This document shows, in pieces, positions 1,474 through 61,859 of a stretch of 64,000 nt of DNA. Below the pieces are notes generated by a model, which worked only from the letters and a program-made list of their open reading frames with translations, did not search any database and was not told where the DNA came from. The translations under genes were made by a program, and so were the position numbers. Positions within the stretch are counted from its first letter, which is position 1, and every line of letters begins with the position of its first letter. This DNA comes from Actinomycetota bacterium (GTDB lineage: Bacteria > Actinomycetota > Thermoleophilia > Solirubrobacterales > Solirubrobacteraceae). Location of the stretch: the NCBI GenBank assembly GCA_005798685.1, contig SYIT01000074.1, positions 27,639 through 91,638 on the forward strand, given 5' to 3'.

Positions 1474-1494
1474 GCGGCTGCAGCCAGCAGGACC

Positions 1495-2583
1495 CTAGCT
1501 GTCTATCAGCGTCGCGCGGATCATCGCTTTGTTCGCTTTGATCCAGTCATTGATGTCGCTGAGAATGTTCCGCGCGTCGCGCTGCGGGCGCCAGTCGGTA
1601 ATTGAGCTGAGTTTCGTGCAGTCGGAGATGTAGACGGCAACGTCGCCTGGCCGATCCTCATTGGCACGCGTGATCTCGAGCTCTTTGCCGGTCAGCTCAC
1701 GGCAGAGCTCAGTCGTTTCGATCAGAGAGAGGCTCACGTCAACGCCGCCGCCGACATTTGCGATTACGCCGTTCCAGTGATCGGGGCGCTCCAACTGGTC
1801 ATTGACCAGTTCGATCAAATCATCGATGTGGAGCAGGTCGCGCACCTGCCGGCCGCTGCCGTCGAAGCCGATGTAGCTGAGCGGCATGTCGAAGTGATGG
1901 GCCATAAGCCAGTAGGTGAAGACGCCTTGGTCAACCTTGCCCATCTGCCACGGGCCGGCGATCACGCCGCAGCGGTTGATCACGCTCTGCAGCCCGAACA
2001 TCTCGGCGTACTCGGTGATCAAGAGCTCGGCTGCCAGCTTCGTCGTGCCGTAGAGCGTTCGAGCCCCTTCAAGCGGAAAGTCTTCACTGATACCGGTTGG
2101 AGAGGCGCCGGCGAGCTGCTGGCCCGCGGCGATCATGAAACGGGTTGGTGTTTGATCCAACTCCAGCGCTGCCAGAGCGGCAACGGGGTAGACGCGGCTT
2201 GTGGAAAGGAAGAGCATCTGCGCCGAGTCGCGCCGCGCCAGTTCCAAGCAGTGGTAGGCGCCGACGAGGTTTGATTGAAACGCGTAGCTCGTCTGGCCAT
2301 CAACGCCGGTCAGCGCCGACGGTTCGGCCGAGCACTCGACAAGAGCGTCGATCGGCGGAAGGTTCTGAAGATCATCCAGCTCGCGAACATCGCCCTTGAC
2401 GAAGCGAACCCCGGCCGCTTCGAGGCGCGGCAGGTTCAGCTCCGATCCGCGGCGATAAAGGTTGTCGAAGGCAGTGACCTTCCAGTCCGGGTGTCGCTCG
2501 ATCAGCGCGACGGCAAGGTTCGCGCCGACGAAGCCGGCGCCGCCTGTGATCAGTACGTGACGCTCCGCCGCGTCGGTGGCCAT
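1495..2583 (-). CDS. NAD-dependent sugar-nucleotide epimerase/dehydratase (extended SDR, CDP-paratose/tyvelose 2-epimerase-like)
   Basis: 'HVLITGGAGFVGANLAVAL' Rossmann motif, 'FDNLYRRGSELNL', and the catalytic YxxxK in 'YGTTKLAAE'. 362 aa. 1-nt stop/start overlap with the upstream methyltransferase gene. Confidence 0.85.
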   Translation of the reverse strand: MATDAAERHVLITGGAGFVGANLAVALIERHPDWKVTAFDNLYRRGSELNLPRLEAAGVRFVKGDVRELDDLQNLPPIDALVECSAEPSALTGVDGQTSYAFQSNLVGAYHCLELARRDSAQMLFLSTSRVYPVAALAALELDQTPTRFMIAAGQQLAGASPTGISEDFPLEGARTLYGTTKLAAELLITEYAEMFGLQSVINRCGVIAGPWQMGKVDQGVFTYWLMAHHFDMPLSYIGFDGSGRQVRDLLHIDDLIELVNDQLERPDHWNGVIANVGGGVDVSLSLIETTELCRELTGKELEITRANEDRPGDVAVYISDCTKLSSITDWRPQRDARNILSDINDWIKANKAMIRATLIDS

Positions 2584-3374
2584 CAGGCGGGAACCGCCAG
2601 CAGCTGCACGCCTCCAATAGCAAGCGCGCTGAGCGGCGTACCAGCTGTACTAGCCGGGATGATGCAATCGTTAGTGATCAGCTTCAGTCGGCTGACGCGC
2701 AGTCCCGCCCGTTCGATCGCCCCTCCAAGGTCATCGAGTGTGATGCGGTTGAGCGCGCGGTATTCGCTCAGCATCATCGCTCCCCAGCCAGGGTCAGTCG
2801 CCTCATCAGTTTCAATCCGCGAAGCGATCTCGTCATCGCTGTGGTCGAACTGCGCGAAGCCGTCTGGAAACCACTGCCAAAGGTGCGAACCATGCTCGGA
2901 GTTGTAGAACGGCCAGAGCTGAAGGAAGAGGACTCCGCCCGGTTTCAGAATGCGGCGAATGTCGCGCAGCAACGCCTCAGGATCAGCAACGTGTTCGAAC
3001 GCCGACCACGTCACGACAACATCAAAGCTGTCGTCATTGGCCGGGATCCGTTCCGGTTGCGACTTCACGAAGCTCAGCTCCGCCGGTAGCTCTCTGATGC
3101 CCTCTTCTGCCTTCGCCTCAGCGAGCAGATGTGACGTGTCGACCTCATTGAGGTCGTAACCGACCAACTCGGCAGGCTTGGCCTTGACTACAAGCCCGAG
3201 GTCGATGATCCCGTCACCGCAGCCGATGTCGGCAATTCGCTTACCGGCCAGGTCCATCCCTGACGACTGGCAGAGGTCAACTACCTCCTGCGCAGCATCG
3301 AAGTGGCCGCGGAACCACTCGGAGCGTTCGCTGCCGAGCCCAGTCGATGGGAGTTTTCCTTCCGATTTAGCCAC
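2583..3374 (-). CDS. class I SAM-dependent methyltransferase (paralog of 4382..5506)
   Basis: Motif I 'IADIGCGDGIIDLGL', 'FDVVVTWSAFEHV', 'LKPGGVLFLQLWPFYNSEHGSHLW'. These blocks are nearly identical to those in ORF 4382..5506. Confidence 0.85.
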   Translation of the reverse strand: MAKSEGKLPSTGLGSERSEWFRGHFDAAQEVVDLCQSSGMDLAGKRIADIGCGDGIIDLGLVVKAKPAELVGYDLNEVDTSHLLAEAKAEEGIRELPAELSFVKSQPERIPANDDSFDVVVTWSAFEHVADPEALLRDIRRILKPGGVLFLQLWPFYNSEHGSHLWQWFPDGFAQFDHSDDEIASRIETDEATDPGWGAMMLSEYRALNRITLDDLGGAIERAGLRVSRLKLITNDCIIPASTAGTPLSALAIGGVQLLAVPA

Positions 3375-3383
3375 GTCTAGTGC

Positions 3384-4385
3384 TCACCAATTTCGGAGCT
3401 CGTCACGCAGGCCGTCGAGCTCCGACCGCAGCTCAGACTCAATTCGGTTGATGCGGTCGGCCTGCAAATTGAGCACGTTCCTTACCAGCGGCGGCATCCG
3501 CAGCGCTGCTTCGATCCTGTCTAGGCGGCCGGCCTCTGAATCGTCACCGACGCTGGCCGGGGCCGCTCTGCTGCCACCGGCGTTTGGTCGGATTGGGTTC
3601 TCCGGGACGGGCTTGGTCGACTCAAGTGGGCGTTCGAGAATCACGTAATCTTGAATGTCGAGCGCGCGTCTTGGCAAGTAGCCACGGACACTGAAACCGG
3701 ACCTTCCCCAATGCTCAAACACATACCAAGGGGCGTGGATTGTCGTGTGGTAGAAGTCAGGGAACCAGCTTCCCACGTACGAGTCATCGGCGATGAAGAC
3801 GATTCCCCTCGACTCGAGCTGCTCGCGCCAGCCGTAGGTGCTCTCGCCTGTCACCGCCGCGCCGTTCTCGATCTGCTCGAGCACGATCTCGCCATGAACC
3901 GTTGCGAGCACCAGCCCTCCTGGCTTTGTTACGCGGTAGAGCTCAGCCAGCCAGAGGTCCTGCATCCGTTCGTCGATGTGAGTGAAGACGCTGTGGTTGA
4001 AAACCAGATCGAACGATTGATCGTCGTACGGGAGCGGCGGCTCGGCCGTGTTGGCACTAAAGCTTGCGAAACCGAGGTTCTCGTTTGACCAATCCATCGC
4101 CTCTTCGTCGATGTCACAGCCGTAGAGCTTCGACTGCTCGCCAACCGGCTGAAGCCAGCGCATGATTCGCCCGCAGCCACTGCCAAACTCGAGGATCGAT
4201 TGGTAGTCGAGCAGGCTAGTGCCGACCGTGGCTAGGACGGCCTCAATGTCGCGGACTGAACGCTTACCGGTTGCGAGAAAACTCTTGAGCACCGCACTCC
4301 TTGCCTCATCGGCCTGAAACGACGTGACCCGATCGATCAGGTGGTCGGGCGGCGTGGGAGCTGTGTCATCAAAGACGATTGTCAT
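3384..4385 (-). CDS. class I SAM-dependent methyltransferase with C-terminal coiled-coil tail
   Basis: Motif I 'ILEFGSGCGRIMRWL', 'FDLVFNHSVFTHI', 'TKPGGLVLATVHG'. The C-terminus 'LQADRINRIESELRSELDGLRDELRNW' is heptad-like. ATGA overlap with the upstream gene at 4382-4385. Confidence 0.85.
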   Translation of the reverse strand: MTIVFDDTAPTPPDHLIDRVTSFQADEARSAVLKSFLATGKRSVRDIEAVLATVGTSLLDYQSILEFGSGCGRIMRWLQPVGEQSKLYGCDIDEEAMDWSNENLGFASFSANTAEPPLPYDDQSFDLVFNHSVFTHIDERMQDLWLAELYRVTKPGGLVLATVHGEIVLEQIENGAAVTGESTYGWREQLESRGIVFIADDSYVGSWFPDFYHTTIHAPWYVFEHWGRSGFSVRGYLPRRALDIQDYVILERPLESTKPVPENPIRPNAGGSRAAPASVGDDSEAGRLDRIEAALRMPPLVRNVLNLQADRINRIESELRSELDGLRDELRNW

Positions 4386-5506
4386 ACCGGTGAAGGTACC
4401 GCGAGCAGCTTCACGCCGCTGGTTAGGAGGTCGCTCAGCGGGAGATCAGCCGAAATGTCATTAGGAAGGTTCACGGTCTCGCTGATCAGCTCAGCTCTGC
4501 GCACGCCAAGCCCCGCTTCGCGCATCAGCTCGTGGAGCTCGTTGAGAGTTAGCCGATTGAGGCTGAGATACTCGTCGTCAGCGGGCCGCCGTGCGTCTGT
4601 TCCGGTCTTGCCCTCGAGGCTCGCGATGATCTCGTCGTTGGGGCTGAGCAGGTGAGGAAATCCGCCGCCGTGGGTTAGCCACAGATGTCCGCCGTGATCG
4701 GAGTAATAGAACGGCCATAGCTGCAGGAAGAGGAACCCATCGGGGCGCAGGATTCGCCTGATCTCCTTCAACATCGCCAGCGGCTCGCTCACGTGCTCGA
4801 AGACCGACCACGTGACGACGACGTCGAAGCTTTCGTCTGCGGCCGGAATCGAGTCGATCCCTGACTCCGCAAAGCTGAGGTTGTCGGGCACGCCGTCTAC
4901 CCCGGCGGCTTGAGCGGCAAGTTGAAGCTCACCAACGTCGGTAGGGGAGACATCGAAGCCGACTAATCGCGAGGGCGCGCCGCGCGTTGCCAGTGCGAGG
5001 TCGATGATTCCATCGCCTGACCCAACGTCGGCGACCTCTCGGCCTCCGATTCCCAAGCCACTCGCGGCGATGAAACCGAGAAGCTGATCGGCTGCGTCAA
5101 CGTAGTGGGCGGCAAACCACTCTTCATCTGACTTTCGCTCGTGCTCGCTCGTCGCGAGCGAGATGCCATCTCCCGCCGTCGAGATCTCGAGGGCGCGCCG
5201 CGCGAACGCAGCCGCCTCACGCGTATCGGCCGCCGTCTTCTCGAGCTCGCCTACGTGGCGTAGCGTCTGTGTGACTGCGTCCTGCGTCTGTGTGACTGCG
5301 TCCTGCGTCTGTGTGACTGCGTCCTGCGTCTGTGCTGAAGAATCCCGAAGTTCGCCGATCTCGCTGGAGATCGCCGCCATGCGTTCCTCGAGCATGCCGA
5401 CGTGACCCGCCGTCGCGAAGCGCTTGCGTTTGATCCACTCTCCAATACCAGCCATCGGCGAAAGAGTAACCGCGGAGCGGGCTAGCGAGTGGGAGCCATT
5501 GCCCAA
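4382..5506 (-). CDS. class I SAM-dependent methyltransferase with N-terminal coiled-coil/heptad-repeat extension
   Basis: 'VADVGSGDGIIDLAL', 'FDVVVTWSVFEHV', 'LRPDGFLFLQLWPFYYSDHGGHLW'. The N-terminal ~120 aa are helical and contain QDAVTQT x3. An alternative start ATG lies at 5455. Confidence 0.85.
   Translation of the reverse strand: MGNGSHSLARSAVTLSPMAGIGEWIKRKRFATAGHVGMLEERMAAISSEIGELRDSSAQTQDAVTQTQDAVTQTQDAVTQTLRHVGELEKTAADTREAAAFARRALEISTAGDGISLATSEHERKSDEEWFAAHYVDAADQLLGFIAASGLGIGGREVADVGSGDGIIDLALATRGAPSRLVGFDVSPTDVGELQLAAQAAGVDGVPDNLSFAESGIDSIPAADESFDVVVTWSVFEHVSEPLAMLKEIRRILRPDGFLFLQLWPFYYSDHGGHLWLTHGGGFPHLLSPNDEIIASLEGKTGTDARRPADDEYLSLNRLTLNELHELMREAGLGVRRAELISETVNLPNDISADLPLSDLLTSGVKLLAVPSPV
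5263..5334. repeat. perfect 21-bp direct tandem repeat, 3 full copies plus a 9-bp partial copy, in-frame inside CDS 4382..5506
   Basis: The unit gcgtctgtgtgactgcgtcct occurs at 5263-5283, 5284-5304 and 5305-5325, followed by gcgtctgtg at 5326-5334. On the minus strand it encodes QDAVTQT repeats. Confidence 0.95.
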
Positions 5507-5571
5507 GCGCTTTAAGGGTCTTCGTCTAAGCTACGCGCGATGCTGCGTCTGCGCCCTGAAGTGGGCAGCCA

Positions 5572-6351
5572 ATGAAGGCCGTGATTCTCGCTGGAGGCCG
5601 CGGTTCCCGCCTCAGCGAGGAAACTTCAGTCAAGCCAAAGCCGATGGTCGACATCGGTCCAAAGCCGATTCTCTGGCACATCATGAAGCAGCTCTCGACG
5701 CACGGGGTTGATGATTTCGTGATCTGCCTGGGCTACATGGGTTACGTGATTAAGGAGTACTTCGCCAACTATGCGCTGCACTCGTCTGACGTTACCTACG
5801 ACATGCGCGCGGGGACTATGGAGGTTCACGCTTCAACAACCGAGCCTTGGCGCGTGACGCTCGTTGACACCGGCGAGGACACAATGACCGGAGGGCGACT
5901 CAAGCGCGTGCTGTCGTACGTAGCGGACGAGAAGGACTTCATCTTCACCTATGGAGACGGTCTCAGCGACGTCAACGTAACTGAGCTAGTTGAGTTTCAC
6001 CGCGCCGCCAGCGTTCTCGCAACCGTAACCGCCGTTCAGCCGGCTGGGCGCTTCGGCGCGCTCGAGATGGACGATTCAAGCGCGCTGGTGGAGAGCTTCC
6101 AAGAGAAGCCGCGCGGCGATGGGGCCTGGATTAATGGCGGCTATTTCGTCCTCAGCCCTGAGGTAGGCGAGTTGATCGAGAACGATCAGACGGCTTGGGA
6201 GGAGCAGCCGGTTGACGCGCTCGCAAAGCAGCGCCAGCTCGCCGCTTACCGCCACAGCGGCTTTTGGCAGCCAATGGACACGCTGCGCGACCGCATCAAC
6301 CTTGAGCAGATGTGGGAGAGCGGCAATGCTCCTTGGAAGAGCTGGGAGTAG
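5572..6351 (+). CDS. rfbF: glucose-1-phosphate cytidylyltransferase
   Basis: 'MKAVILAGGRGSRLSEETSVKPKPMVDIGPKPILWHIM...VICLGYMGYVIKEYFANY' is the typical RfbF/DdhA N-terminus. 259 aa. Confidence 0.92.
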   Translation: MKAVILAGGRGSRLSEETSVKPKPMVDIGPKPILWHIMKQLSTHGVDDFVICLGYMGYVIKEYFANYALHSSDVTYDMRAGTMEVHASTTEPWRVTLVDTGEDTMTGGRLKRVLSYVADEKDFIFTYGDGLSDVNVTELVEFHRAASVLATVTAVQPAGRFGALEMDDSSALVESFQEKPRGDGAWINGGYFVLSPEVGELIENDQTAWEEQPVDALAKQRQLAAYRHSGFWQPMDTLRDRINLEQMWESGNAPWKSWE

Positions 6352-6383
6352 GCGGGTTGCCGGGTGTTCCGCAGCAGGTTGCC

Positions 6384-7445
6384 GTGCCGGGTTCGGCGCA
6401 GTGGCGCGGTCGCCGCGTGCTCGTTACCGGTCATACCGGCTTCAAGGGTTCATGGCTAAGCCTCTGGCTGGATTCTCTGGGCGCGGAGGTCTCCGGGCTT
6501 TCAGATCAAGTGCAGCCAGCGCCAGCTCTCTTTGCTCAGGCCGATCTCGAGCAGATTGTTGATCACAACATCGCCGACGTTCGTGACGCCGAGGCCGTTC
6601 ACGCAATCGTCGAGCGGGTCCAGCCCGACGTCGTCTTTCACCTCGCCGCCCAACCCTTCGTTCGCCGGTCCTTCCGCGAGCCGCTCGAGACGTACGAGAC
6701 GAACGTGATGGGCACGGCCAACGTCCTCGACGCAGTACGCCGCGTTGGTGGAGTGCAGGCGGTCGTCGTTGTCACCTCAGACAAGTGCTACGACAACGAT
6801 GAGCAGCAGCGCCCGTTCGTCGAGACGGATCCGATGGGTGGCCACGATCCATATTCGAACTCCAAAGGCGCAGCGGAACTGGTAACCGATGCCTTCCGCC
6901 GCTCGTACTTCTCAGAGCCCGGCACCGCAAACATCGCCTCTGCCCGCGCCGGCAACGTGATCGGCGGCGGCGACTGGGGTGAGGACCGCCTCATTCCCGA
7001 CATCATGCGCGCAGTGATGGCCGGCGAGCCGGTGCAGATCCGCAGGCCTGACGCCGTCCGTCCATGGCAGCACGTCCTCGACCCACTCAGTGGCTACCTG
7101 GTGCTTGCGCAGGCACTGATCGAATCTGGCGAGCAGGCCCAAGCATGGAACTTCGGCCCCTCGATCGACGATGCCAAGCCCGTTTCGTTCCTTGTCGAGC
7201 GGCTTGCCGAGCTCTGGCCCACACCGATTGAGTGGGAGATCGACAACGGCGACCACCCGCACGAAGCTCACTTCCTCAGCCTCGACTCGGGCAAAGCGCG
7301 CGAGCTGCTCGGTTGGCGGCCGGGGTGGGATCTCGACGAAAGTCTAGATGCAACGGTGGCTTGGTTCGAAGCGCTGCAATCCGGTGAGGCAATGGGACCA
7401 TTCAGCCTAAGGCAGGTCGAGGACTACACGGGTTCGCCCGCGTGA
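6384..7445 (+). CDS. rfbG: CDP-glucose 4,6-dehydratase
   Basis: 'WRGRRVLVTGHTGFKGSWLSLWL' and 'SDKCYDN'. The track ORF starts at 6312 inside rfbF; the GTG at 6384 gives the canonical N-terminus. Start is uncertain, end is firm. Confidence 0.9.
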   Translation: MPGSAQWRGRRVLVTGHTGFKGSWLSLWLDSLGAEVSGLSDQVQPAPALFAQADLEQIVDHNIADVRDAEAVHAIVERVQPDVVFHLAAQPFVRRSFREPLETYETNVMGTANVLDAVRRVGGVQAVVVVTSDKCYDNDEQQRPFVETDPMGGHDPYSNSKGAAELVTDAFRRSYFSEPGTANIASARAGNVIGGGDWGEDRLIPDIMRAVMAGEPVQIRRPDAVRPWQHVLDPLSGYLVLAQALIESGEQAQAWNFGPSIDDAKPVSFLVERLAELWPTPIEWEIDNGDHPHEAHFLSLDSGKARELLGWRPGWDLDESLDATVAWFEALQSGEAMGPFSLRQVEDYTGSPA

Positions 7446-7517
7446 ACTGCTACTGCTCCGCTAGCCTTGCTCTGGCCAGCGCCGCGAACTGAAGCTTGAT
7501 CGCACAGAGAGTAATTT

Positions 7518-8618: not shown

Positions 8619-8622
8619 CCGG

Positions 8623-10410
8623 ATGACCGATCGATCGCCGGTCAAGTACGCGGACCTAGTCGCCGACTGGCTCGTCGAGCTGGGCTGCACGCATTGCTTC
8701 TTCGTTGCGGGCGGCAACATCATGCACCTGCTGTCGTCGGTGCGCTCGCGTTTCGTCTGCGTCCCGGTCGTGCATGAAACGGCCGCTGGCATCGCAACTG
8801 AGTACTTCAACGAGGCTGCTGACGGCGCGAAGGCCTTCGCGCTGGTGACCGCCGGGCCTGGCGTGACGAATATTCTGACGGCGATGGCCGGGGCGTTCCT
8901 CGAGAGCCGTGAGCAGCTAGTGATCGCCGGGCAGGTCAAGTCTTCGGATCTGGCAGCCCCCGAGCTGCGCCAGCGTGGAATTCAAGAGATCGACGGCGTG
9001 GCGATGACGTCGCCGGTCGCAGTTGCCTCGCTCCGTGTTGATCAGCCGCTCTCGCGAGAAGAGTTCTTCGGTGCGGTAGAGGTGGAAGGGCGTCAAGGCC
9101 CCGTGTTCCTTGAGTTCTGCCTTGATGCTCAGGCTGCCCCGGTCGATCCTGCTGAGGCGCGCTTCATCGCGCCGCTAGACGACCGCTCGAGCAACACGGA
9201 CGATGGCGCAATTGAAGCTGCCGCCGAGCAGATCGCCGCTCTGATGGCTGGCGCCGAACGGCCTGTTTGGTTGGTTGGAGGAGGCGTTAGCAGGTCGGCT
9301 GCTTCTGCTCTCCGCCCGCGCCTTGAGGCCCTTGGGGTTCCATTGCTGACAACTTGGAATGGTGCCGACCGGATCAGCGCCGACAACCCGTACTATTTCG
9401 GCCGTCCGAATACTTGGGGTCAACGCTCGGCAAACATGATCCTCCAGCAGGCCGACTTGGTCGTTGCGCTCGGTACAAGGCTCGGCCTTCAGCAGACGGG
9501 GTTCAACTGGCAGCAGTTTGCCCCCGTAGCTCACACCGTTCAAGTTGACATTGATCGCACGGAGCTTGAGAAAGGGCACCCGCAGATTGACCTCGCTCTC
9601 GAATTGGACGCAAACCGTCTGCTCGAACTGCTCTGTGGTCGTGAATATGCCAGCTACGAAAGCTGGGTCAACTACTGCCGCGAGGTTCGCGCAGCGCTCC
9701 CACTGATCGAAGCGAACACCTGCGGCGCCGGCTACGTTTCTCCTTACAAATTCTACGAACAGCTCTGTGAGCTGTCGCGGGAAGACGACGTGTTCACCGT
9801 CTGCAGCAGCGGCGGTGCGAACTCGGTGGGGATGCAGATGATTGAGCCAATCGGCTCACAACTTCTGATTGCCGACAAGGGTCTCGCTAGCATGGGATAC
9901 GGCCTCGCGGGCGCGATTGGGGCGGCCTTCACAGCGCCTCAACGGCGCGTGTTATTGGTCGAGGGTGACGGTGGGTTCGCGCAGAATTCGCAGGAGCTTG
10001 CAACGGTCGCTGTCAACAACCTCAACGTCAAGATCGCAATCTTTGATAACGCCGGCTATGCGTCGATCAAGATGACGCAGCTCAACTACTTTGACGGCGA
10101 ATACCTCGGCTGCGACATCTCCTCCGGCCTTGGCTTCCCCAACTGGGAGGCGCTCTTCGCTGCCTATGGAATTCCATGCGTGACGATCGACGACGCGGCC
10201 TTCGCGGGTGGTGCTCTGGCTGATTCGCTAGATCAGCCTGGGCCGATCGGAATCATTGTTCGCGTCGACCCTGAACAGACCTACTTTCCGAAGATCAGCA
10301 GCCGCGTGACCGAGAGCGGCTCAATGGAATCGAACCCACTCCATATGATGACGCCCGAGCTGCCTGACGAGATTCTCGCTCAGGTAGCCCGCTACCTTCC
10401 GGGCTCGTGA
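8623..10410 (+). CDS. thiamine-diphosphate-dependent enzyme (acetolactate-synthase fold; YerE-like candidate for sugar C-branching)
   Basis: 'ADWLVELGCTHCFFVAGGNIMHLL', catalytic Glu in 'VVHETAAGIATEY', 'TAGPGVTNILT', and ThDP-Mg motif 'VEGDGGFAQNSQEL...FDNAGY'. The track ORF 8491 start lies inside the NeuB-like gene; the ATG at 8623 follows its stop. Confidence 0.85.
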   Translation: MTDRSPVKYADLVADWLVELGCTHCFFVAGGNIMHLLSSVRSRFVCVPVVHETAAGIATEYFNEAADGAKAFALVTAGPGVTNILTAMAGAFLESREQLVIAGQVKSSDLAAPELRQRGIQEIDGVAMTSPVAVASLRVDQPLSREEFFGAVEVEGRQGPVFLEFCLDAQAAPVDPAEARFIAPLDDRSSNTDDGAIEAAAEQIAALMAGAERPVWLVGGGVSRSAASALRPRLEALGVPLLTTWNGADRISADNPYYFGRPNTWGQRSANMILQQADLVVALGTRLGLQQTGFNWQQFAPVAHTVQVDIDRTELEKGHPQIDLALELDANRLLELLCGREYASYESWVNYCREVRAALPLIEANTCGAGYVSPYKFYEQLCELSREDDVFTVCSSGGANSVGMQMIEPIGSQLLIADKGLASMGYGLAGAIGAAFTAPQRRVLLVEGDGGFAQNSQELATVAVNNLNVKIAIFDNAGYASIKMTQLNYFDGEYLGCDISSGLGFPNWEALFAAYGIPCVTIDDAAFAGGALADSLDQPGPIGIIVRVDPEQTYFPKISSRVTESGSMESNPLHMMTPELPDEILAQVARYLPGS

Positions 10411-11345
10411 TTAGCTCGACAATCGAGCGGCTCAGAGCAGTCGATCGCATCGTCGTCCTAGGTGCAAACGGATGGTTTGGGCGGACGATGGTTGATCTGC
10501 TCGAGGAGGCGTATGGCGCCGATCTGGCCGAGCGGACGGAGCTGTATGCACGTGGCGCCCACCGACTCACTTCATCTGAGGGGCGCGACCTCCGCGTGTC
10601 ACCGCTGAGTGAGCTTGGCGGCCTTTCAGCTAAGCCAGCGACGCTGCTGGTTGATTGCGCCTACCCAACCCAAGAGCAGGTCACAGCGCTTGGCCCCGGA
10701 GCATATGTCGAGGTCGTCGGTGAGCTGCGCGAACAGCGGCGCACGGCGCTTGAGCAGCTTCGGCCGGAGGCTTTCGTTTCGCTCTCCTCCGGTGCGGCGA
10801 AGCTCTTCGCCGATGGCCTTCCAATCGCCGAGCGCACAAAGGTGTATGGGGAGATGAAGTGGCTCGATGAGAGGCAGATGCTTGAGGATTGCCCTGAGCT
10901 GGGAGTGAGGCTTTGCATCGCGCGTATCTACGCCGCTTCGGGCCCTCACATGACGAAGGCGTCGAGCTACGCACTCGGTGACCTAATTGAGCAGGCTCGC
11001 GCTGGCGGCGCTATTGAGATACGCGCACCGCACCGGGTCATGCGTTCCTACACGCTGGCTGCGGACACGTTGGAGCTTGCCGTGCTCGCCTCGTTAGGTA
11101 CCGATGCCGACCGACCGGAGCTGTTCGAGACAGGCGGCGAGCAGGTAGATCTTGCGGAGCTGGCACGCCGGGTTTCTCTCGTCGTCCGTGGTGAGGAGCC
11201 GGAGTTGCTGCTCGCCGAGCCCGATGGAAGCGCTGACGACGTTTACCTAGGCGATCCTTCGCGGATCGCGGAATTGGCTGATCTACACGGGCTTCATCTC
11301 GCGGGCCTCGACGAGCAGATCCTCAGGACGGCTGAGAATGGTTGA
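10407..11345 (+). CDS. NAD(P)-dependent SDR-type oxidoreductase (candidate sugar ketoreductase)
   Basis: 'IVVLGANGWFG' glycine-rich loop and YxxxK in 'YGEMKWLDE'. GTGA overlap with the upstream ThDP gene. Confidence 0.7.
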   Translation: MISSTIERLRAVDRIVVLGANGWFGRTMVDLLEEAYGADLAERTELYARGAHRLTSSEGRDLRVSPLSELGGLSAKPATLLVDCAYPTQEQVTALGPGAYVEVVGELREQRRTALEQLRPEAFVSLSSGAAKLFADGLPIAERTKVYGEMKWLDERQMLEDCPELGVRLCIARIYAASGPHMTKASSYALGDLIEQARAGGAIEIRAPHRVMRSYTLAADTLELAVLASLGTDADRPELFETGGEQVDLAELARRVSLVVRGEEPELLLAEPDGSADDVYLGDPSRIAELADLHGLHLAGLDEQILRTAENG

Positions 11346-12018
11346 AGACTTGCGATGGGATGTAGTCCTCTTTGACCTCGATGGAACGATCATTGATCCC
11401 TTCGACGGAATCGCCGACGGTGTCCGCAAGGCATTCGCTGAGGTTGGCGAGCCCGCGCCCGCGGATGAGAGAATCCGCGGCTGGATCGGCCCACCAATCG
11501 GAGAGGCGTTCGCGGCAGAATTCGGCCACCTTGGCCCTGACGCCGTAGCGACTGCGCTCGCCACGTTCCGTCAGTCGTACGACAACGGTGGCGCCCAGAG
11601 CGCAACTCTCCACAGCGGGATGCGTGAGGTGATCCTCTCCCTCCACGACGCTGGGGCCTACGTCGCTGTGACAACGATGAAGCCACGGCTCATAACTGAG
11701 GTCATCCTTGAGCAGCATGACCTGCGCGCCTCGTTGGATGGTGTGTTTGCTCCGGCTGCGGACCAGGCTTCGTCAAACAAGTCTGCGCTAGTGGCAGAAG
11801 CGTTGATCGACGCGCGCGCTGCGGGGGCCGGAGAGAAAAGCGGGGTCGTCGTCGGTGACAGAGCGGACGACATGCGGGCCGCTCGATTAAATGACCTAGC
11901 TGGCGTTGGGGTAGCTTGGGGTTTCGGCGAATCGGCTGAACTTCTGCAGGAGCGTCCGCTTGAAGTTGCGACTTCACCGCTGCAATTGGTCACCATTTTG
12001 GGGGTAGGTAAGGTCTAA
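11338..12018 (+). CDS. HAD-superfamily phosphatase (phosphoglycolate-phosphatase-like)
   Basis: Motif I 'VLFDLDGTIIDP' and motif IV 'VVVGDRADDMRAA'. 226 aa. Overlaps the upstream gene by 8 nt. Confidence 0.85.
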   Translation: MVEDLRWDVVLFDLDGTIIDPFDGIADGVRKAFAEVGEPAPADERIRGWIGPPIGEAFAAEFGHLGPDAVATALATFRQSYDNGGAQSATLHSGMREVILSLHDAGAYVAVTTMKPRLITEVILEQHDLRASLDGVFAPAADQASSNKSALVAEALIDARAAGAGEKSGVVVGDRADDMRAARLNDLAGVGVAWGFGESAELLQERPLEVATSPLQLVTILGVGKV

Positions 12019-12022
12019 CGCT

Positions 12023-12976
12023 ATGGACACCGCGCAACGCAAACTTATCTCGGTAGTGATCCCCGCTTTCAATGAAGAAGCGAACATCCAGCAGCTCTCG
12101 CAGCGCCTCGCGGCGGTGTTCGACGAGGAGTCGAAATACGATTTCGAGGCGATCATTGTTGAGAATGGCTCGATTGATAAGACGTTCGAGCAGTCCGTCG
12201 CTGCTCGCGATCGGGACCCGCGCTTCAAGGTTCTCCAGCTCTCGCGGAACTTCCGGATGGACGGCGGTCTGACGGCCGGCCTAGCTAGCGCCAGCGGCGA
12301 CGCAGCCGTCCTAATGGCTGCAGATCTGCAGGACCCGCCCGAACTGATTCACAAGTTTCTGCGCAAGTGGGAGGAGGGCTACGAGATCGTCTATCAGATC
12401 GTCACCGACCGGAAGGGCACCGGCCCGATCAGGCGGATGAACTCCCAGCTCTTCTACTGGATCGCCGGCATGATGACCGATGGCCGAATTCCCCGCAACG
12501 TCAGCGACTTTCGGTTAGTCGACCGCAAGGTCTACCAGGCCGTCAATGTGATGGAGGAGCGCAACCGCTTCGTCCGCGGGCTATTCGCCTGGGTCGGTTT
12601 CTCATCGATTGGGATCGAAGCTGAGCGTGCCCCTCGCACCGGTGGAGTCTCCGGGGCGCACACATTCGGCGTGATCGACCTGGCCTTCAAGGGCATCTTT
12701 GCCCACTCCTATAAGCCGCTCCGACTGATCTCGCTCTTTGGCTTGACGCTCAGCGCGCTCTCGTTCCTGGCGATCATCGTATTCGCGGTTCGGTTCCTCG
12801 TTGAGGGTGTCCCATTCGCTGGATTCGGGACGATCGTCTGCCTCTTCCTGCTGATGTTCGGCTTCCTCTTCACGATGCTCGGCATCGTCAGCGAGTACGT
12901 CGGGCTTATCTACGAAGAAGTGAAGCAGCGGCCCAACTTTGTGGTTCGCACCAAGGTTGGGCTTGACGACGACTAG
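12023..12976 (+). CDS. family-2 glycosyltransferase of the polyprenyl-phosphate sugar synthase type (ArnC/GtrB/DPM1-like)
   Basis: 'ISVVIPAFNEEANI', 'AIIVENGSIDKT', 'MAADLQDPPE', followed by two C-terminal hydrophobic helices ('LISLFGLTLSALSFLAIIVFAV', 'TIVCLFLLMFGFLFTMLGIV'). Confidence 0.85.
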   Translation: MDTAQRKLISVVIPAFNEEANIQQLSQRLAAVFDEESKYDFEAIIVENGSIDKTFEQSVAARDRDPRFKVLQLSRNFRMDGGLTAGLASASGDAAVLMAADLQDPPELIHKFLRKWEEGYEIVYQIVTDRKGTGPIRRMNSQLFYWIAGMMTDGRIPRNVSDFRLVDRKVYQAVNVMEERNRFVRGLFAWVGFSSIGIEAERAPRTGGVSGAHTFGVIDLAFKGIFAHSYKPLRLISLFGLTLSALSFLAIIVFAVRFLVEGVPFAGFGTIVCLFLLMFGFLFTMLGIVSEYVGLIYEEVKQRPNFVVRTKVGLDDD

Positions 12977-13719
12977 GCCCCTGACGGCGGCTCCGTTACC
13001 TTCAGGCCGAGCGCCAGTGACGTCGCTCCGATAGGGCTGTAACGACCTGACGGCAGAACCATCTCGTTGAGCACTCTGCGCTCGTCGGCGTCGATCGCCT
13101 CGTCGAAGTAAAGAAGATCTCCGCGTTTTAGCATTGGCGAAAGAACGCGCCACGCTTCCGCGGTTGGCTCATAAATGTCGAGGTCGAAGAGAACGAGCCA
13201 CTGAGCGTCAACTTCCGCGGTGAGGTCAACGTCACCAAGCGTGTCTTCGACATCGCCCACATGCCACGTTACGCGCGCGTCATCAATCTCGGGCGTCCGC
13301 CCGCCTGCGTCGAATTCACCCTCGGGAAGACCGCGCCAGCCGCGGGGTAGGCCGGTGAAGCGATCGAATCCGTGCCACTCGACGTCTGCGCGCTTGAGCA
13401 TCGTGAGCCAGTGCTCGGTGGCGTAACCCCACGCGACGCCAAATTCAAGTACGAACAGTGGCCGGGTCGGATCAAGATGCGACGACATCTGCTGCCAAAG
13501 TTCCTCCCGCTTCCAGAAGAGCTTCACCGTTTCATCAAACGATGCTGACTGCCATCGCACAAAGCTCGCAACATCGCCGGCGTTGACGAATTTGTCGGCC
13601 AGGGCGGGAATGCGACGGACTACTCGTGCAGCGATCCCGTGCAGAACGATTGCCGACTGAGGCATCTCTAAGGCGCTGCGCATCCCGTGTTCATTTTTAG
13701 GCATAAGCGATCTCTCCAC
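12973..13719 (-). CDS. TylF/MycF-like class I SAM-dependent (O-)methyltransferase
   Basis: 'FVLEFGVAWGYATEHWL', 'WHGFDRFTGLPRGW' and 'LVLFDLDIYEPT' resemble the macrocin-O-methyltransferase family blocks (E.GV..G, FDSF.GLP, DgDlYeST). Converges on the GT2 gene with a 4-nt overlap. Confidence 0.6.
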   Translation of the reverse strand: MERSLMPKNEHGMRSALEMPQSAIVLHGIAARVVRRIPALADKFVNAGDVASFVRWQSASFDETVKLFWKREELWQQMSSHLDPTRPLFVLEFGVAWGYATEHWLTMLKRADVEWHGFDRFTGLPRGWRGLPEGEFDAGGRTPEIDDARVTWHVGDVEDTLGDVDLTAEVDAQWLVLFDLDIYEPTAEAWRVLSPMLKRGDLLYFDEAIDADERRVLNEMVLPSGRYSPIGATSLALGLKVTEPPSGA

Positions 13720-13736
13720 TAGAAGTGTCTCGGACC

Positions 13737-15089
13737 CTACTTACAAGCGTCGTGCAGAACCTCGAGCATGAAGTCAATCTGTTGATCGCCGAGGCCGGGG
13801 TAGACGCCGATCCAGAAGACGTTCTCCATTACGAAGTCGGAGTTCGTTAGTTCGCCAATGACGCGATGTTCGATCTTGCTGTAGGCCGGCTGCCTGAGCA
13901 GGTTGCCGCCGAACAAGAGCCTCGTTGCAATCCCGCGGTCTTCTAACGCCCGAACAACTTCGTTGCGCGTCACAGGGCCGCCGGGGCGGATCGCGATCGG
14001 GAAGCCGAACCAGCTCGGCGCGCTGTTCTGCGTTGCTTCAGGGAGGATCATCAGCTCTTCAAGGTCGGCCAGCCCCGCTCGCAGCCGCTCGTAGTTGTGC
14101 TGGCGAGCGGCGATAAAGCTCTCCACTTTGTCCAGCTGCGCCACGCCGACAGCTGCCTGCATGTCGGTGATCTTCAGGTTGTAGCCAATCTCCGAGTAGG
14201 TGTACTTGTGGTCGTAGCCTTCTGGTAGCTCGCCGAACTGCTGGTCGAAGCGCTTGCCACAGGTGTCCTGCTTGCCTGGCTCGCACCAGCAGTCGCGGCC
14301 CCAGTCACGGAACGATTCGGCAAGCACCTTGTACTTGCCCTTATCGCAGATCACGGCGCCGCCCTCACCCATCGTGATGTGGTGCGCGGGGTAGAAGCTG
14401 ACGGTTGCGAAATCACCGAACGAGCCGACCGGCTTGCCCTTGTAAGTACTGCCCAGTGCATCGCAGCAGTCTTCGACCAGCCAGAGATCGTGTTCCTCGC
14501 AGAAGGCGGTGATTGTGGCGAGGTCGAACGGATTGCCGAGCGTGTGGGCGATCATTACGGCCCGCGTCTTCTCGCTCAGCGCTTCTTCGAGATGGGTGAC
14601 GTCAATGTTGTAGGTCGGAATGTCGACGTCGAGGAAGACCGGGACGGCGCCGTTCTGAATGATCGGGTTGATCGTCGTCGGGAAGCCAGTTGCGAGGGTG
14701 ATCACTTCGTCGCCATGTTTGACGTGGCGCTTGCCCATCTTCGTTGAGGTCAGGCACGAGAAGGCAACGAGGTTCGCTGACGAGCCGCTGTTGACGAGCG
14801 TGGTGTGGCGGCGACCGAAGAGTTCCTTGGCGAAGCGCCGCTCGAATTCGGCTGCGTAGCGGCCCGTCGTCAGCCAGAAGTCGAGTGAGGAATCGATCAA
14901 GGCGACCACTTCGTTCTCGTCGAAGACACGGCCGGCGACTGGAACGGCGCTCTCGTCAGCGATGAACTCAGCTTCCGGGAAGGCGGCGGCGTGGTATTCC
15001 GCGGTCAGCGCGAGGATCTGGCTTCGCAGGGCTGCTGCGTCGTTGCTGCCTATTGTGGTCACTGGATTCGCTTCATCATCTGCGGACAC
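13737..15089 (-). CDS. rfbH: CDP-6-deoxy-L-threo-D-glycero-4-hexulose-3-dehydrase (E1; PMP- and [2Fe-2S]-dependent, DegT/RfbH family)
   Basis: '[13 protein letters not shown]'. '[14 protein letters not shown]' has His where aminotransferases carry the PLP Lys. The Cys pattern C-X57-C-X1-C-X7-C runs from 'EDCC' to '[11 protein letters not shown]', counted directly. Confidence 0.9.
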
Positions 15090-15107
15090 CCTACCGATAC
15101 CTTGACG

Positions 15108-15372
15108 ACAGTCAGCCTCTCGGTTCTATGTCCAACGCGGGATTCAGGCGAACGCGTCGTCGCGCTTCTTGACCAACTCCGCTGCGTTGCTGATGAGATC
15201 GTGGTGCTCGCTAACATCGAGGCCGATCCTGACGATGTTGCTTGCTACGCAACGGTCGCCGATCGTCTGCTGCGTTACGAGTTTGCCATGCCGGGGGAGC
15301 GGAGGCCTGACCGACTGGGCCCCGGAAATCAGTCTGGATGAGGGCCTGGTAGAGCTGCTGGAAGCGGCTCGA
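15108..15372 (+). pseudogene. decayed gene fragments: GT2-like N-terminus followed, in another frame, by an epimerase-like C-terminus
   Basis: In the frame of ORF 14991, '[33 protein letters not shown]' resembles a GT2 N-terminus. In the frame of ORF 15169, 'GLTDWAPEISLDEGLVELLEAAR' resembles an SDR-epimerase C-terminal tail. No full-length ORF. Lies in a 527-bp otherwise non-coding gap. Confidence 0.3.
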
Positions 15373-15616
15373 TGTGCCTGAGCGCCGCGCGCCGCGCTAG
15401 AGAATCTGCTGCACAGCAATCACAGCAACCGCGAAGCCTGAGCCGCAGGCGGCGATTAAAGCCAGTCGCGGGCCGAGCAGCTCGCCGCGGCGACGCGCTC
15501 GGCGGCGACGAAGATCTCGCCGCGAGACCGAGCTTGCGTAGATCACCTGTCGGTCGATCGCCACGAACCGCAGAATGCCCGCCGCGGCGGACGGAACTCC
15601 TTCAAATCGAGGCTTT

Positions 15617-60008: not shown

Positions 60009-60071
60009 GGCGGGGCGCGACGGCATGGGAACTTTGCAGTGGATCAAACGATCAGGGGGAGCGTTTAAGCG

Positions 60072-61826: not shown

Positions 61827-61859
61827 CCGATTCCGTCCCCAGGCGAGGAGATCAAGAGA

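Follow-up and report, generated by a model that had tools for sequence, protein, structure and literature searches.

Gene content of the locus

The gene cluster occupies positions 1-15089 of the window, the 64-kb stretch of DNA analysed here, and runs on to its left edge. The CDP-3,6-dideoxyhexose front end comprises three genes. Glucose-1-phosphate cytidylyltransferase RfbF/DdhA (5572-6351, plus strand) scored 421 bits against the TIGR02623 cut-off of 300, and CDP-glucose 4,6-dehydratase RfbG/DdhB (6312-7445, plus strand) scored 471 bits against the TIGR02622 cut-off of 278; the latter alignment begins at residue 31, and the real start of RfbG probably lies at ~6348-6384. The E1 enzyme, CDP-6-deoxy-L-threo-D-glycero-4-hexulose 3-dehydrase (RfbH/DdhC/AscC; 13737-15089, minus strand), scored 711 bits against 423 for NF011936 and bears the hallmark His at the PLP-lysine position (SFYPAHH) and the E1 Cys motif C209-X57-C267-X-C269-X7-C277. 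At the level of sequence, these matches establish the three identities. An E3 reductase of the DdhD/AscD type was found neither in the window locus nor in six loci tabulated by Pfam domain.

Downstream on the plus strand lie genes for a NeuB-family PEP-dependent synthase (7518-8618), a ThDP-dependent carboligase (8623-10410), a 312-residue short-chain dehydrogenase/reductase (SDR; 10407-11345), a HAD phosphatase (11338-12018) and a GT2 glycosyltransferase (12023-12976), with successive gaps or overlaps of at most 8 bp. Owing to this tight packing, RfbF through GT2 on the plus strand are read as one operon. The methyltransferase gene at 4382-5506 is the first of a divergent minus-strand operon, separated from rfbF by 65 bp. 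The first-pass annotation had named rfbF, rfbG, the E1 enzyme, the ThDP and NeuB-family enzymes, two SDRs, the HAD phosphatase and four methyltransferases; each was recovered at the coordinates given here with scores far beyond chance.

The two SDRs differ in character. The 362-residue protein (1495-2583, minus strand) matches Pfam Epimerase with 112 bits and has GxxGxxG and YxxxK motifs; its best solved relatives are the CDP-tyvelose 2-epimerases 9rl0 (135 bits) and 1orr (122 bits), and we propose from this similarity that it is the C2 epimerase of a CDP-linked 3,6-dideoxy sugar. The 312-residue protein is a divergent extended SDR with a weak Epimerase match (30.5 bits) and the motifs GANGWFG and YGEMK; no solved sequence relative of it was found. 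Its gene directly follows the ThDP gene, in the YerF position, with a start that overlaps the ThDP stop codon, and the protein is homologous (33% identity over 296 residues) to the SDR downstream of the aldolase in another locus (L002). We propose it as the reductase of a side-chain C1' ketone.

The HAD protein, C1-capped and of 226 residues, matches HAD_2 with 61 bits and contains the motif I sequence DLDGT. It resembles phosphoglycolate phosphatases, scoring under their cut-offs, and among solved proteins comes closest to uncharacterised COG0546 phosphatases; it is proposed to dephosphorylate a ulosonate phosphate or the aldose-phosphate precursor. The class I SAM methyltransferases are encoded on the minus strand at 2583-3374 (263 residues; Methyltransf_23/11/25), 3384-4385 (333 residues; Methyltransf_11/25) and 4382-5506 (374 residues; Methyltransf_11/25/23 over residues 155-333, after an N-terminal extension of ~150 residues). 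A fourth methyltransferase, of the Methyltransf_24 (TylF-like) type (12973-13719, minus strand; 248 residues), matches PF13578 with 26.4 bits, right at the cut-off, and has a weak local match (E 0.002) to the TDP-rhamnose 3'-O-methyltransferase CalS11; its counterpart in locus L003 carries both TylF and Methyltransf_24. The methyltransferases of the locus received no specific family assignment, and the one at 2583-3374 met no specific NCBIfam family.

The ThDP enzyme and a distinct NeuB-like subfamily

The ThDP open reading frame spans 8491-10410, with a probable start at 8623; counted from M45, the protein has 595 residues, and its homologues have 595-615. It contains three TPP domains and the GDG-X-N motif. 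Its best solved relative is JanthE (8rph; 303 bits), a YerE-like sugar-ketone carboligase to which it is only 34% identical and whose physiological role is not known; PpYerE (178 bits) is no nearer than E. coli AHAS (177 bits). Identification as an amino-acid acetolactate synthase was rejected, the score being 240 bits against an equivalog cut-off of 738 with all such equivalogs missed, and no AHAS small subunit was found adjacent to the gene. We propose from these comparisons that the protein is a C4-branching enzyme. The YerE/YerF logic suggested by the first-pass annotation thus holds up, and the clustering with amino-acid-pathway enzymes that it had offered as a counter-test was not seen, JanthE being the nearest solved protein.

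The NeuB-like protein has NeuB and SAF domains and belongs to a tight subfamily with 65-98% identity across phyla. Assignment as a sialic, pseudaminic or legionaminic acid synthase was likewise discarded (NeuB model, 109 bits against a cut-off of 400; PseI, 105 against 340), so that the ordinary sialic/legionaminic synthase raised earlier as the competing identity was not what the locus holds. Among solved structures, the NeuB-like protein is closest to 3g8r (236 bits; NmNeuB, 74 bits), a protein with no assigned function. Catalytic, metal and PEP residues are retained: the equivalents of NmNeuB E25, K53, Q55, K129, S132, S154, Y186, S213, H215, E234 and H236 are all kept and are invariant in 24 homologues. 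The ManNAc-specific R314 is lost, and there are differences at N184 and D247. The protein therefore appears to be a competent PEP- and metal-dependent enzyme acting on a different aldose, and we propose that it makes a 3-deoxy-2-ulosonic acid that becomes the sugar branch.

Glycosyltransferases

Two candidate glycosyltransferases were absent from the first-pass annotation. The GT2 protein (317 residues; Glycos_transf_2, 84 bits) is a PgfS/ArnC/GtrB-like candidate polyprenyl-phosphate glycosyltransferase with two C-terminal transmembrane segments; its scores of 226 bits for the PgfS model and 125 bits for the ArnC model are both under the cut-offs. At 1-1473 (plus strand) lies a candidate GT-C-fold membrane glycosyltransferase whose frame is open from base 1. 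The window edge cuts off ~72 N-terminal residues; full-length homologues have ~555. No Pfam domain is assigned to the family, which counts 57 members; its first loop carries an invariant Asp (D47 in 'DEW'), and the 'HNGHL' of the window protein agrees with the family consensus. In Foldseek searches with the AF2 model of a 91% identical homologue (P0241; pLDDT 93), the top matches of the membrane domain were GT-C enzymes, namely EmbA/B, STT3, ArnT (TM 0.46), PMT, PglB and AftD, and the C-terminal beta-sandwich, CBM-like, matched CBM29. We only infer that this protein is tied to the branched sugar. In two loci (L008 and L167), the GT-C of the orf483 type comes with a GT2 and an epimerase of its own, which makes it less certain which GT-C would take the lipid-linked sugar.

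Conservation of the NeuB-ThDP gene pair

An unbiased scan of species genomes with the NeuB-like protein gave at least 592 matches, and 50 well-flanked loci among the matches listed were scored. Of these 50, 49 have a ThDP gene within 10 kb and 47 within 3 kb, at a median gap of 97 bp, and the adjacency spans at least eight phyla. Of the 50, 42 contain a YerF-like SDR; RfbF occurs in 32, RfbG in 28 and RfbH in 34, a HAD gene beside the NeuB-like gene in only 11, and an HpcH/HpaI aldolase near it in none. The minimal module, from Geothrix (L005), consists of six genes and nothing else: RfbF-RfbG-RfbH-SDR-ThDP-NeuB. Among 63 NeuB-like neighbourhoods, GT2 (39 of 63), PMT-type GT-C enzymes and methyltransferases are recurrent, and no CMP-ulosonate synthetase, NeuC-type epimerase, kinase or isomerase family is.

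In an independent metagenome scan with close homologues of the window ThDP enzyme, limited to loci flanked by 3 kb or more on each side, 14 loci were NeuB-linked, 17 aldolase-linked, 4 neither and 0 both, and in the ThDP tree the NeuB- and aldolase-linked types are intermingled, as non-orthologous replacement of one function would predict. The near-obligate adjacency and mutual exclusivity with the aldolase suggest that the NeuB-like enzyme feeds the ThDP enzyme, probably supplying its donor and hence the branch itself, and the separate keto-deoxy acid joined to the sugar, as first envisaged, is probably not made.

A proposed pathway for a branched surface sugar

Steitz et al. (2022; PMC9306805) described one unifying scheme for erwiniose and the mycobacterial sugars caryophyllose and gastriose, in which a YerE-like enzyme and a YerF-like reductase put a long functionalised branch on CDP-4-keto-3,6-dideoxyglucose. 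In that scheme, a pyruvate aldolase (HpcH/HpaI) provides the alpha-keto acid; ErwE uses the aldol product 4-hydroxy-2-oxopentanoate and refuses pyruvate, and MygE accepts C3-C8 keto acids. The window locus has instead a PEP-dependent NeuB-family synthase, and it is most likely an uncharacterised variant of this scheme. The first-pass interpretation is thus supported in part. Its gene identifications and YerE/YerF logic stand, and the gene set is, as far as could be checked, uncharacterised; the general logic is already published, the NeuB role probably differs, and dideoxyhexose chemistry in a GC-rich actinobacterium, set against the mostly Gram-negative descriptions there, has precedent in caryophyllose and gastriose.

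A cell-surface sugar is the most likely output of the locus: a dideoxy sugar that is C-branched, methylated and unusually long. The product is, with moderate confidence, a CDP-activated 3,6-dideoxyhexose that is C4-branched by a long polyhydroxyalkyl chain and later O-methylated and lipid-carried to the envelope; we infer substrate, step order and product as follows. RfbF, RfbG and RfbH would convert glucose-1-phosphate to CDP-4-keto-3,6-dideoxy-D-glucose, with electrons for E1, whose donor is not encoded in the locus, assumed to come from a general ferredoxin/flavodoxin reductase. In parallel, a 3-deoxy-2-ulosonic acid would arise from PEP and an aldose, free or phosphorylated, through condensation by the NeuB-like enzyme, with the HAD phosphatase stripping phosphate from this product or its precursor. 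The ThDP enzyme would decarboxylate the alpha-keto acid and add the acyl-anion equivalent to the C4 ketone, giving, by analogy with ErwE, MMAR_2332 and MygE, a tertiary alcohol with a 1'-oxo-2'-deoxy side chain. The 312-residue SDR, in the YerF role, would reduce the 1'-ketone and the tyvelose-epimerase-like SDR would invert C2, and up to four methyltransferases may O-methylate the sugar (compare gastriose, whose side chain is 1,3-dimethoxy). The GT2 could then move the sugar onto polyprenyl phosphate, from which the GT-C-fold enzyme would attach it to an envelope acceptor outside the membrane.

Alternative readings

The NeuB-like step might come before or after the ThDP step, and the close adjacency of the two genes is compatible with either order. 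In a reversed scheme, which we consider unlikely, the ThDP enzyme would first attach to the CDP-4-keto sugar a short branch such as a formyl group from glyoxylate, or the NeuB-like enzyme would add PEP directly to the nucleotide-sugar carbonyl; the keto-deoxy acid would be built on the sugar as a shewanellose-like carboxylated branch, and this sugar-borne alpha-keto acid may in turn be the substrate of the ThDP enzyme. The altered R314, N184 and D247 positions, which suggest that the acceptor is not a normal hexosamine, fit this order, as does the lack of any recurrent dedicated free-aldose supply gene in the 63 neighbourhoods. To our knowledge, however, the substrates of NeuB-family enzymes are free sugars in their open-chain aldehyde form, not the ketones of nucleotide sugars. 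A phosphorylated free-sugar route also accounts better for the recurring HAD phosphatase, the aldolase that the NeuB-like enzyme replaces acts on free metabolites, and the only tested homologous system, that of ErwE, makes the keto acid first (PMC9306805).

Two independent sugars, implicit in the first-pass annotation, seem less likely still: a yersiniose-like C2-branched sugar made from pyruvate by the ThDP enzyme and SDR, and a KDN/Kdo-like ulosonic acid made by the NeuB-like and HAD proteins for the same glycan, the genes being neighbours merely through a shared polysaccharide. Pathways are often mixed in glycan loci, and the Neu5Ac-9-P and KDN-9-P routes are known to pair a NeuB-type synthase with a HAD phosphatase acting after it. 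Yet domain and profile searches of the window locus revealed no CMP-ulosonate synthetase (CTP_transf_3), NeuC-type epimerase or extra nucleotidyltransferase, and none recurs in the neighbourhoods, so that a ulosonic acid could not be activated. The Geothrix module holds nothing for a second sugar, and the adjacency across phyla and strict aldolase exclusivity are unexpected of unrelated pathways. That the locus is ordinary and has been characterised before is very improbable, as is a chance presence of housekeeping acetolactate and sialic acid synthases. The source annotations, 'acetolactate synthase large subunit' and 'N-acetylneuraminate synthase', would favour the latter, but both proteins widely miss all curated equivalog cut-offs, the small subunit is not adjacent and the genomic context is conserved and specific; our literature search found no paper linking NeuB to ThDP branching. 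Profile scores, solved relatives and NeuB-ThDP neighbourhood counts thus already contradict this reading.

The probable NeuB-fed variant of acyl-branched-sugar synthesis recurs in hundreds of bacterial species of many phyla. RfbF, RfbG and RfbH are absent within 10 kb in about one-third of the loci, for example in Rhodocyclaceae, where the acceptor sugar may be different.

Organization of the glycan locus and its CDP-sugar front end

ORF mapping together with Pfam and NCBIfam profile scans showed that the glycan locus (window 1-15089) consists of three compact transcription units. On the plus strand, an operon (5572-12976) encodes RfbF, RfbG, a NeuB-family protein (7518-8618), a ThDP enzyme of the ALS fold (8623-10410), a 312-aa SDR (10407-11345), a HAD phosphatase (11338-12018) and a GT2 glycosyltransferase (12023-12976); from NeuB to GT2 the gaps or overlaps on the ORF map are at most 8 bp. 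A divergent minus-strand operon (5506-1495), 65 bp away, carries three class I SAM methyltransferases and a 362-aa SDR (1495-2583). The third unit, on the minus strand at 15089-12973 and convergent with GT2, pairs RfbH (13737-15089) with a Methyltransf_24 protein, MT248 (12973-13719). The first-pass annotation had described a CDP-3,6-dideoxyhexose front end joined to a ThDP enzyme, SDRs, a NeuB-family protein, a HAD phosphatase and four methyltransferases. All of these were found, and the ORF and profile scans, with the E1 features of RfbH, confirm that observation. Beyond its gene list, the locus contains GT2 and a membrane protein cut off by the left edge of the window.

The cytidylyltransferase, 4,6-dehydratase and E1 dehydrase of the CDP-3,6-dideoxyhexose pathway (DdhABCD/AscABCD) all score above equivalog cut-offs. 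RfbF is a glucose-1-phosphate cytidylyltransferase (TIGR02623, 421 bits; cut-off 300), RfbG a CDP-glucose 4,6-dehydratase (TIGR02622, 471 bits; cut-off 278) and RfbH an E1 dehydrase (NF011936, 711 bits; cut-off 423). In RfbH a His replaces the PLP lysine (SFYPAHH), and the cysteines are spaced C209-X57-C267-X-C269-X7-C277, which we take to be the unusual [2Fe-2S] motif reported for the Yersinia E1. Neither the ORFs scanned in window 22-21649 nor the Pfam tables for six related loci (L001-L006) contain a protein with a Fer2, FAD_binding_6 or NAD_binding_1 domain, as expected for a dedicated E3 reductase (DdhD/AscD). Some E1-type enzymes, for example SpnQ, function with general reductases. At 0.60-0.62, the G+C fraction of the locus is slightly below that of the adjoining sequence (0.63-0.67). 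A mobile-element or phage origin was considered and rejected, as no tRNAs were found and the flanking genes belong to ordinary metabolism.

A predicted carboligase next to a NeuB-like synthase

The ThDP enzyme contains the TPP_enzyme_N, M and C domains (Pfam) and a GDG-X(24-27)-N cofactor motif (GDGGFAQNSQELATVAVNNLNVKIAIFDN, at residue 492) with the canonical GDG. Because its homologues are 595-615 aa long, the true start within ORF 8491-10410 was placed at M45 (window 8623), 5 bp past the NeuB stop codon. In a sequence search against solved structures the enzyme is as near to an acetohydroxyacid synthase (E. coli AHAS I, 177 bits) as to the YerE enzyme PpYerE (5ahk, 178 bits). Identity as an amino-acid acetolactate synthase (IlvB/IlvG/IlvI) was rejected: the best score against the ALS models is 240 bits where the equivalog cut-off is 738, and no AHAS regulatory small subunit lies beside the gene, whose neighbours encode NeuB and the SDR. 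The gene sits instead with RfbF, RfbG and RfbH, its stop codon is overlapped by the 312-aa SDR gene, and the association is kept in relatives. Profile scores and gene context thus argue that the window enzyme is probably a carboligase of the sugar-branching type, not an acetolactate synthase.

The best match among solved structures is 8rph, with 303 bits; it was identified as JanthE, a YerE-like ThDP lyase from Janthinobacterium, by the published CDG motif in the alignment (PMC12247030). Both NeuB-partnered ThDP clades have JanthE as their best solved relative, with a score that is higher still, 429 bits, for the Acidicapsa ThDP enzyme. JanthE can use ketones as acceptors and also takes long donors (PMC12247030), and its physiological substrates and gene context are not established (PMC12188165). 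For the identity comparison, JanthE residues 7-606 were reconstructed from the PDB alignment. The window enzyme is 34% identical to JanthE and has the canonical GDG in place of CDG; at only 34-40% identity, JanthE was rejected as an ortholog of the NeuB-linked ThDP enzymes.

The NeuB-like protein combines a NeuB TIM barrel (PF03102, 125 bits) with a SAF domain (PF08666), as do the sialic, pseudaminic and KDN synthases (NeuB, PseI, NANS), with which it also shares metal ligands and PEP-binding residues. In a profile alignment, the equivalents of E25, K53, Q55, K129, S132, S154, Y186, S213, H215, E234 and H236 of the Neisseria meningitidis enzyme (NmNeuB) are kept, and they are invariant across 24 homologues; in NmNeuB these residues bind the metal and PEP or serve in catalysis. 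Three other positions differ from NmNeuB: N184 and D247 are both replaced by Ser, and R314, which in NmNeuB contacts the N-acetyl group, is replaced by Val312 (Ile in the consensus). From the residues kept and the changes at R314, N184 and D247, we conclude that the protein is probably a competent PEP-dependent synthase of the aldol type whose acceptor would not be ManNAc.

A true sialic acid synthase was rejected, given the loss of R314 and scores far below the equivalog cut-offs for NeuB (TIGR03569, 109 bits against 400) and PseI (TIGR03586, 105 bits against 340). Unlike the sialic, pseudaminic and KDN synthases, the protein is partnered by a ThDP enzyme, with no CMP-activating enzyme at the locus; genes of the NeuC/NeuA type for precursor supply or CMP activation are absent from the locus and do not recur as a family in the 63 gene neighbourhoods compared. 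Its nearest solved structure is 3g8r (236 bits; true NeuB, 74 bits; PseI, 56 bits), a structural-genomics 'SpsE' from Chromobacterium violaceum that carries no assigned function. The pairing of a synthase with a HAD phosphatase, as at this locus, recalls the Neu5Ac-9-P and KDN-9-P routes. A representative-library search reduced the subfamily to roughly a single full-length 50% cluster, surrounded by a broader 3g8r-like group that is 35-47% identical (P0305-P0447); many representatives of this group are ~500 aa long and extend roughly 150-180 aa past the matched region.

NeuB-like and aldolase genes are mutually exclusive beside one ThDP family

A unifying scheme has been described for erwiniose, caryophyllose and gastriose, in which the hydroxylated alpha-keto acid formed by a class II pyruvate aldolase is coupled to CDP-4-keto-3,6-dideoxyglucose by a YerE-like ThDP enzyme (ErwE, MMAR_2332 or MygE), and a YerF-like reductase completes the branch (PMC9306805, PMC12247030). 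ErwE rejects pyruvate and uses the aldol product (PMC9306805). A metagenome scan seeded with the window ThDP family returned homologues at 53-61% identity, and 35 of their loci had at least 3 kb of sequence on each side. A NeuB-like gene was present in 14 of these and an aldolase gene in 17; four loci had neither and none had both. The aldolase loci usually also carry a DHQ-synthase-like gene, as in L002, an aldolase-type locus. Pfam scans of window 1-15089 detected no class II pyruvate aldolase of the HpcH/HpaI or BphI type, and none was detected in 50 NeuB-type loci. In a rough NJ tree that carries no support values, the NeuB-linked and aldolase-linked types interleave within the actinobacterial ThDP clade. 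Mutual exclusion beside one ThDP family is the pattern that non-orthologous displacement would leave, which argues that the NeuB-like enzyme most likely supplies the alpha-keto acid donor of the ThDP enzyme.

In L002 and the aldolase-type loci among L099-L166, the 3-dehydroquinate-synthase-like gene (PF01761) almost always precedes the ThDP gene and is often accompanied by a short-chain dehydrogenase; the two may make the aldehyde partner of the aldolase. The same gene occurs in two NeuB-type loci, L146 and L164.

Distribution and conserved neighbourhood of the NeuB-like subfamily

With one genome scanned per species, the NeuB-like subfamily was found in at least 592 species-level genomes. Acidicapsa acidisoli (L004) and Geothrix sp. 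21YS21S-4 (L005) are carriers available in culture. Carriers include Actinomycetota, many Acidobacteriota, Rhodocyclales (Rhodocyclaceae, Sulfuritalea), Myxococcota (Myxococcales) and Planctomycetota, as well as NC10, Kiritimatiellia, Patescibacteria and Gammaproteobacteria. Among the matches listed, identity within the subfamily holds at 65-72% across phyla. The first-pass guess of a GC-rich, possibly monoderm host is supported by the closest genomes among these matches, which are freshwater Actinomycetota MAGs: one (L007) matches at 97% identity in the NeuB-like protein and at 91% across 7.5 kb of DNA, and another (L008) is collinear with window 4-16384 at 79-89% DNA identity. Three MAG records that carry the glycan locus (L008, L010 and L011) are titled 'Bifidobacterium breve' or 'uncultured Bifidobacterium sp.'; the window is ~62% G+C, and these labels look like misassigned freshwater Actinomycetota bins.

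Synteny was checked in 50 loci from the matches listed that have at least 8 kb on both sides of the NeuB-like gene, and the gene association noticed in the single sequence held up in related genomes. The ThDP enzyme is encoded within 10 kb of the NeuB-like gene in 49 loci and within 3 kb in 47, with a median gap of 97 bp. A YerF-like SDR is nearby in 42 of the 50, RfbH in 34, RfbF in 32 and RfbG in 28; the HAD is beside the NeuB-like gene in a minority of loci only (11/50), and an HpcH/HpaI aldolase in none (0/50). RfbF, RfbG and RfbH were not found within 10 kb in about one-third of the NeuB-type loci. A second count, in which every ORF up to 7 kb from the NeuB-like gene was clustered in 63 loci with no prior assumptions, again placed the ThDP family at the top (58/63), followed by SDRs (47/63), GT2 (39/63), RfbH (37/63), RfbF (31/63), methyltransferases (27/63), GT-C enzymes of the PMT/PMT_2 type (18/63) and HAD (13/63). 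Families of CMP-ulosonate synthetases, sugar kinases or isomerases did not recur among these ORFs. The Geothrix locus (L005) represents a minimal module, RfbF-RfbG-RfbH-SDR-ThDP-NeuB.

Predicted tailoring and lipid-carrier functions

The 312-aa SDR shares 33% identity, over 296 aa, with the SDR encoded after the aldolase in L002, and bears GxxGxxG and YxxxK motifs; a sequence search of the PDB gave no match. On this homology and these motifs it fits the role of YerF. The 362-aa SDR is closest to the CDP-tyvelose 2-epimerases 9rl0 (135 bits) and 1orr (122 bits), and this proximity suggests C2 epimerisation of a CDP-linked sugar. The Pfam and NCBIfam scans gave none of the four methyltransferases a specific assignment, and MT248 gave only a marginal local match to CalS11 against the PDB. 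The gastriose side chain is 1,3-di-O-methylated (PMC9306805), so the predicted O-methylation has precedent.

GT2 (317 aa) resembles PgfS and ArnC, scoring below both cut-offs, and has two C-terminal transmembrane segments, an architecture that makes it a candidate polyprenyl-phosphate glycosyltransferase. A GT-C enzyme adjoins this GT2 in related loci, of the GT87 family in L001 and L002 and of PMT_2 types in Acidobacteriota. The nearest GT-C candidate in the window is orf483 (1-1473, plus strand), the protein truncated by the window edge. Its family comprises 57 proteins of ~555 aa with no Pfam domain. The AF2 model of a 91%-identical family member has a pLDDT of 93; in Foldseek searches its membrane domain matches only GT-C enzymes, at modest TM scores of 0.37-0.46, and the C-terminal domain is CBM29-like. 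D47, in the first extracytoplasmic loop, is invariant across 48 sequences. Since a Pfam GT-C match is lacking, orf483 is assigned as a putative GT-C glycosyltransferase at the fold level only; BLASTP detected no similarity between it and the GT87 protein of L001. In L008 and L167 the orf483 family has its own 282-aa GT2 and an epimerase, and the link of orf483 to the branched sugar is therefore tentative.

A further membrane protein, orf583 (583 aa; 17253-19004, minus strand), has eight or more hydrophobic segments, ends in a soluble region and could be GT-C-like. Support for a second GT-C was not found: Pfam and NCBIfam scans gave no match, and hhalign against the orf483 family was negative. 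Its single-sequence AF2 model has a pLDDT of 43. Fusions of ~1100 aa that join GT4 glycosyltransferase and SAM methyltransferase domains occur at 2536-5859 of L001 and 1-2432 of L167, adjoining branched-sugar or orf483-type genes in these actinobacterial loci.

Relation to known branched-sugar systems and a proposed pathway

The closest described systems are the clusters for acyl-branched sugars: erwiniose (ErwE/F/I/J, Pectobacterium atrosepticum), caryophyllose (MMAR_2331-2333, Mycobacterium marinum) and gastriose (MygE/F/I, M. gastri) (PMC9306805), among which there is thus an actinobacterial precedent. They have in common with the window locus the genes for CDP-4-keto-3,6-dideoxyglucose and for a YerE-like ThDP carboligase with an adjoining NAD(P)H reductase, a dedicated enzyme that makes, or at the window locus would make, a functionalised alpha-keto acid donor and, where the sugar is methylated, methyltransferases. 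The metagenomic ThDP relatives at 53-61% identity likewise occur in the aldolase-type arrangement of the Steitz scheme (L002). The predicted donor enzyme differs: a NeuB-family synthase that depends on PEP, in many cases accompanied by a HAD phosphatase, takes the place of the class II pyruvate aldolase of the published clusters. The window locus further has an extra SDR like CDP-tyvelose 2-epimerase, four methyltransferases and a polyprenyl-phosphate-type GT2.

Yersiniose A of Yersinia pseudotuberculosis (DdhA-D with YerE/YerF) shares the front end (RfbF/G/H correspond to DdhA/B/C) and ThDP-dependent C4 branching followed by SDR reduction; however, YerE draws a C2 branch from pyruvate, and Yersinia has the E3 (DdhD) that the window locus lacks. 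Lipid-carrier systems (ArnC/ArnT, GtrB with a GT-C, Streptococcus mutans Pgf, and mycobacterial Ppm1 with PimE/GT87) likewise combine a GT2 bearing C-terminal transmembrane helices with GT-C proteins nearby, although enzymes of the ArnC/GtrB/PgfS type do not usually take a CDP-sugar donor, as GT2 at the window locus would.

Enzyme family identities, motifs, synteny and co-occurrence counts are the observations on which the following scheme is built. The locus very probably makes a YerE-type C4-branched CDP-3,6-dideoxyhexose. With less assurance, we think that the branch probably comes from a 3-deoxy-2-ulosonic acid made by the NeuB-like enzyme: the predicted substrates would be PEP and a C4-C6 aldose or aldose phosphate, and a C6-C8 side chain would remain after decarboxylation. 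By analogy with the YerE-like enzymes, we propose that the window ThDP enzyme carries out carboligation of the alpha-keto acid onto the sugar ketone. The order of steps is itself predicted, and alternative orders may apply. More broadly, we see about an even chance that the NeuB-like/ThDP pair of at least 592 species genomes constitutes an unrecognised route to ~C13-C15 C-branched sugars, in which the NeuB-family enzyme would make the chain, the ThDP enzyme would graft it onto a nucleotide sugar, and a polyprenyl-phosphate carrier and a GT-C enzyme would deliver the product to a putative acceptor as a surface decoration.

The overall branched-sugar chemistry is of an already known kind; the exchange of NeuB for aldolase, its breadth and the lipid-carrier genes would be the new part, which we did not find in the papers searched. 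A whole-word literature search returned no paper linking NeuB to ThDP branching; the in silico survey of Krug et al. 2024, cited in PMC12247030 for >200 YerE-like clusters, lies outside its scope. If the proposal is right, ulosonic acids would become candidate physiological donors for JanthE-like carboligases, and the yersiniose/erwiniose/caryophyllose/gastriose logic would extend to PEP-dependent donor supply. A large, highly conserved NeuB subfamily now annotated 'N-acetylneuraminate synthase' and its partner ThDP enzymes now annotated 'acetolactate synthase' would both gain a function, correcting a systematic misannotation that makes carrier genomes look sialic-acid-producing. Undiscovered methylated sugars of 13 to 15 carbons would be predicted on abundant soil and freshwater bacteria (Acidobacteriota, freshwater Actinomycetota), and new carboligases with polyhydroxylated donors would become available for the biocatalysis of chiral tertiary alcohols.

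Other features of the window

A second ThDP enzyme of the ALS fold is encoded at 60072-61826 (plus strand; 584 aa; TPP_enzyme_M, 145 bits), within 57373-63200, where its neighbours are a flavin amine oxidase (57373-59013), an O-methyltransferase (59010-60008) and a class III aminotransferase (61860-63200). This enzyme is unconnected with the glycan locus; it may be the housekeeping AHAS or may serve a further small pathway. Window 28232-50454, downstream of the glycan locus, resembles a block for the catabolism of N-heterocycles or nucleosides. It encodes a molybdoenzyme of the xanthine-dehydrogenase/CO-dehydrogenase type together with CoxG and XdhC, an isochorismatase, a CN hydrolase, a Bmp/PnrA-type ABC transporter and, besides several other amidohydrolases, one that is HDAC-like. 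At 28232-29248 lies the gene for a CMAS-like methyltransferase.
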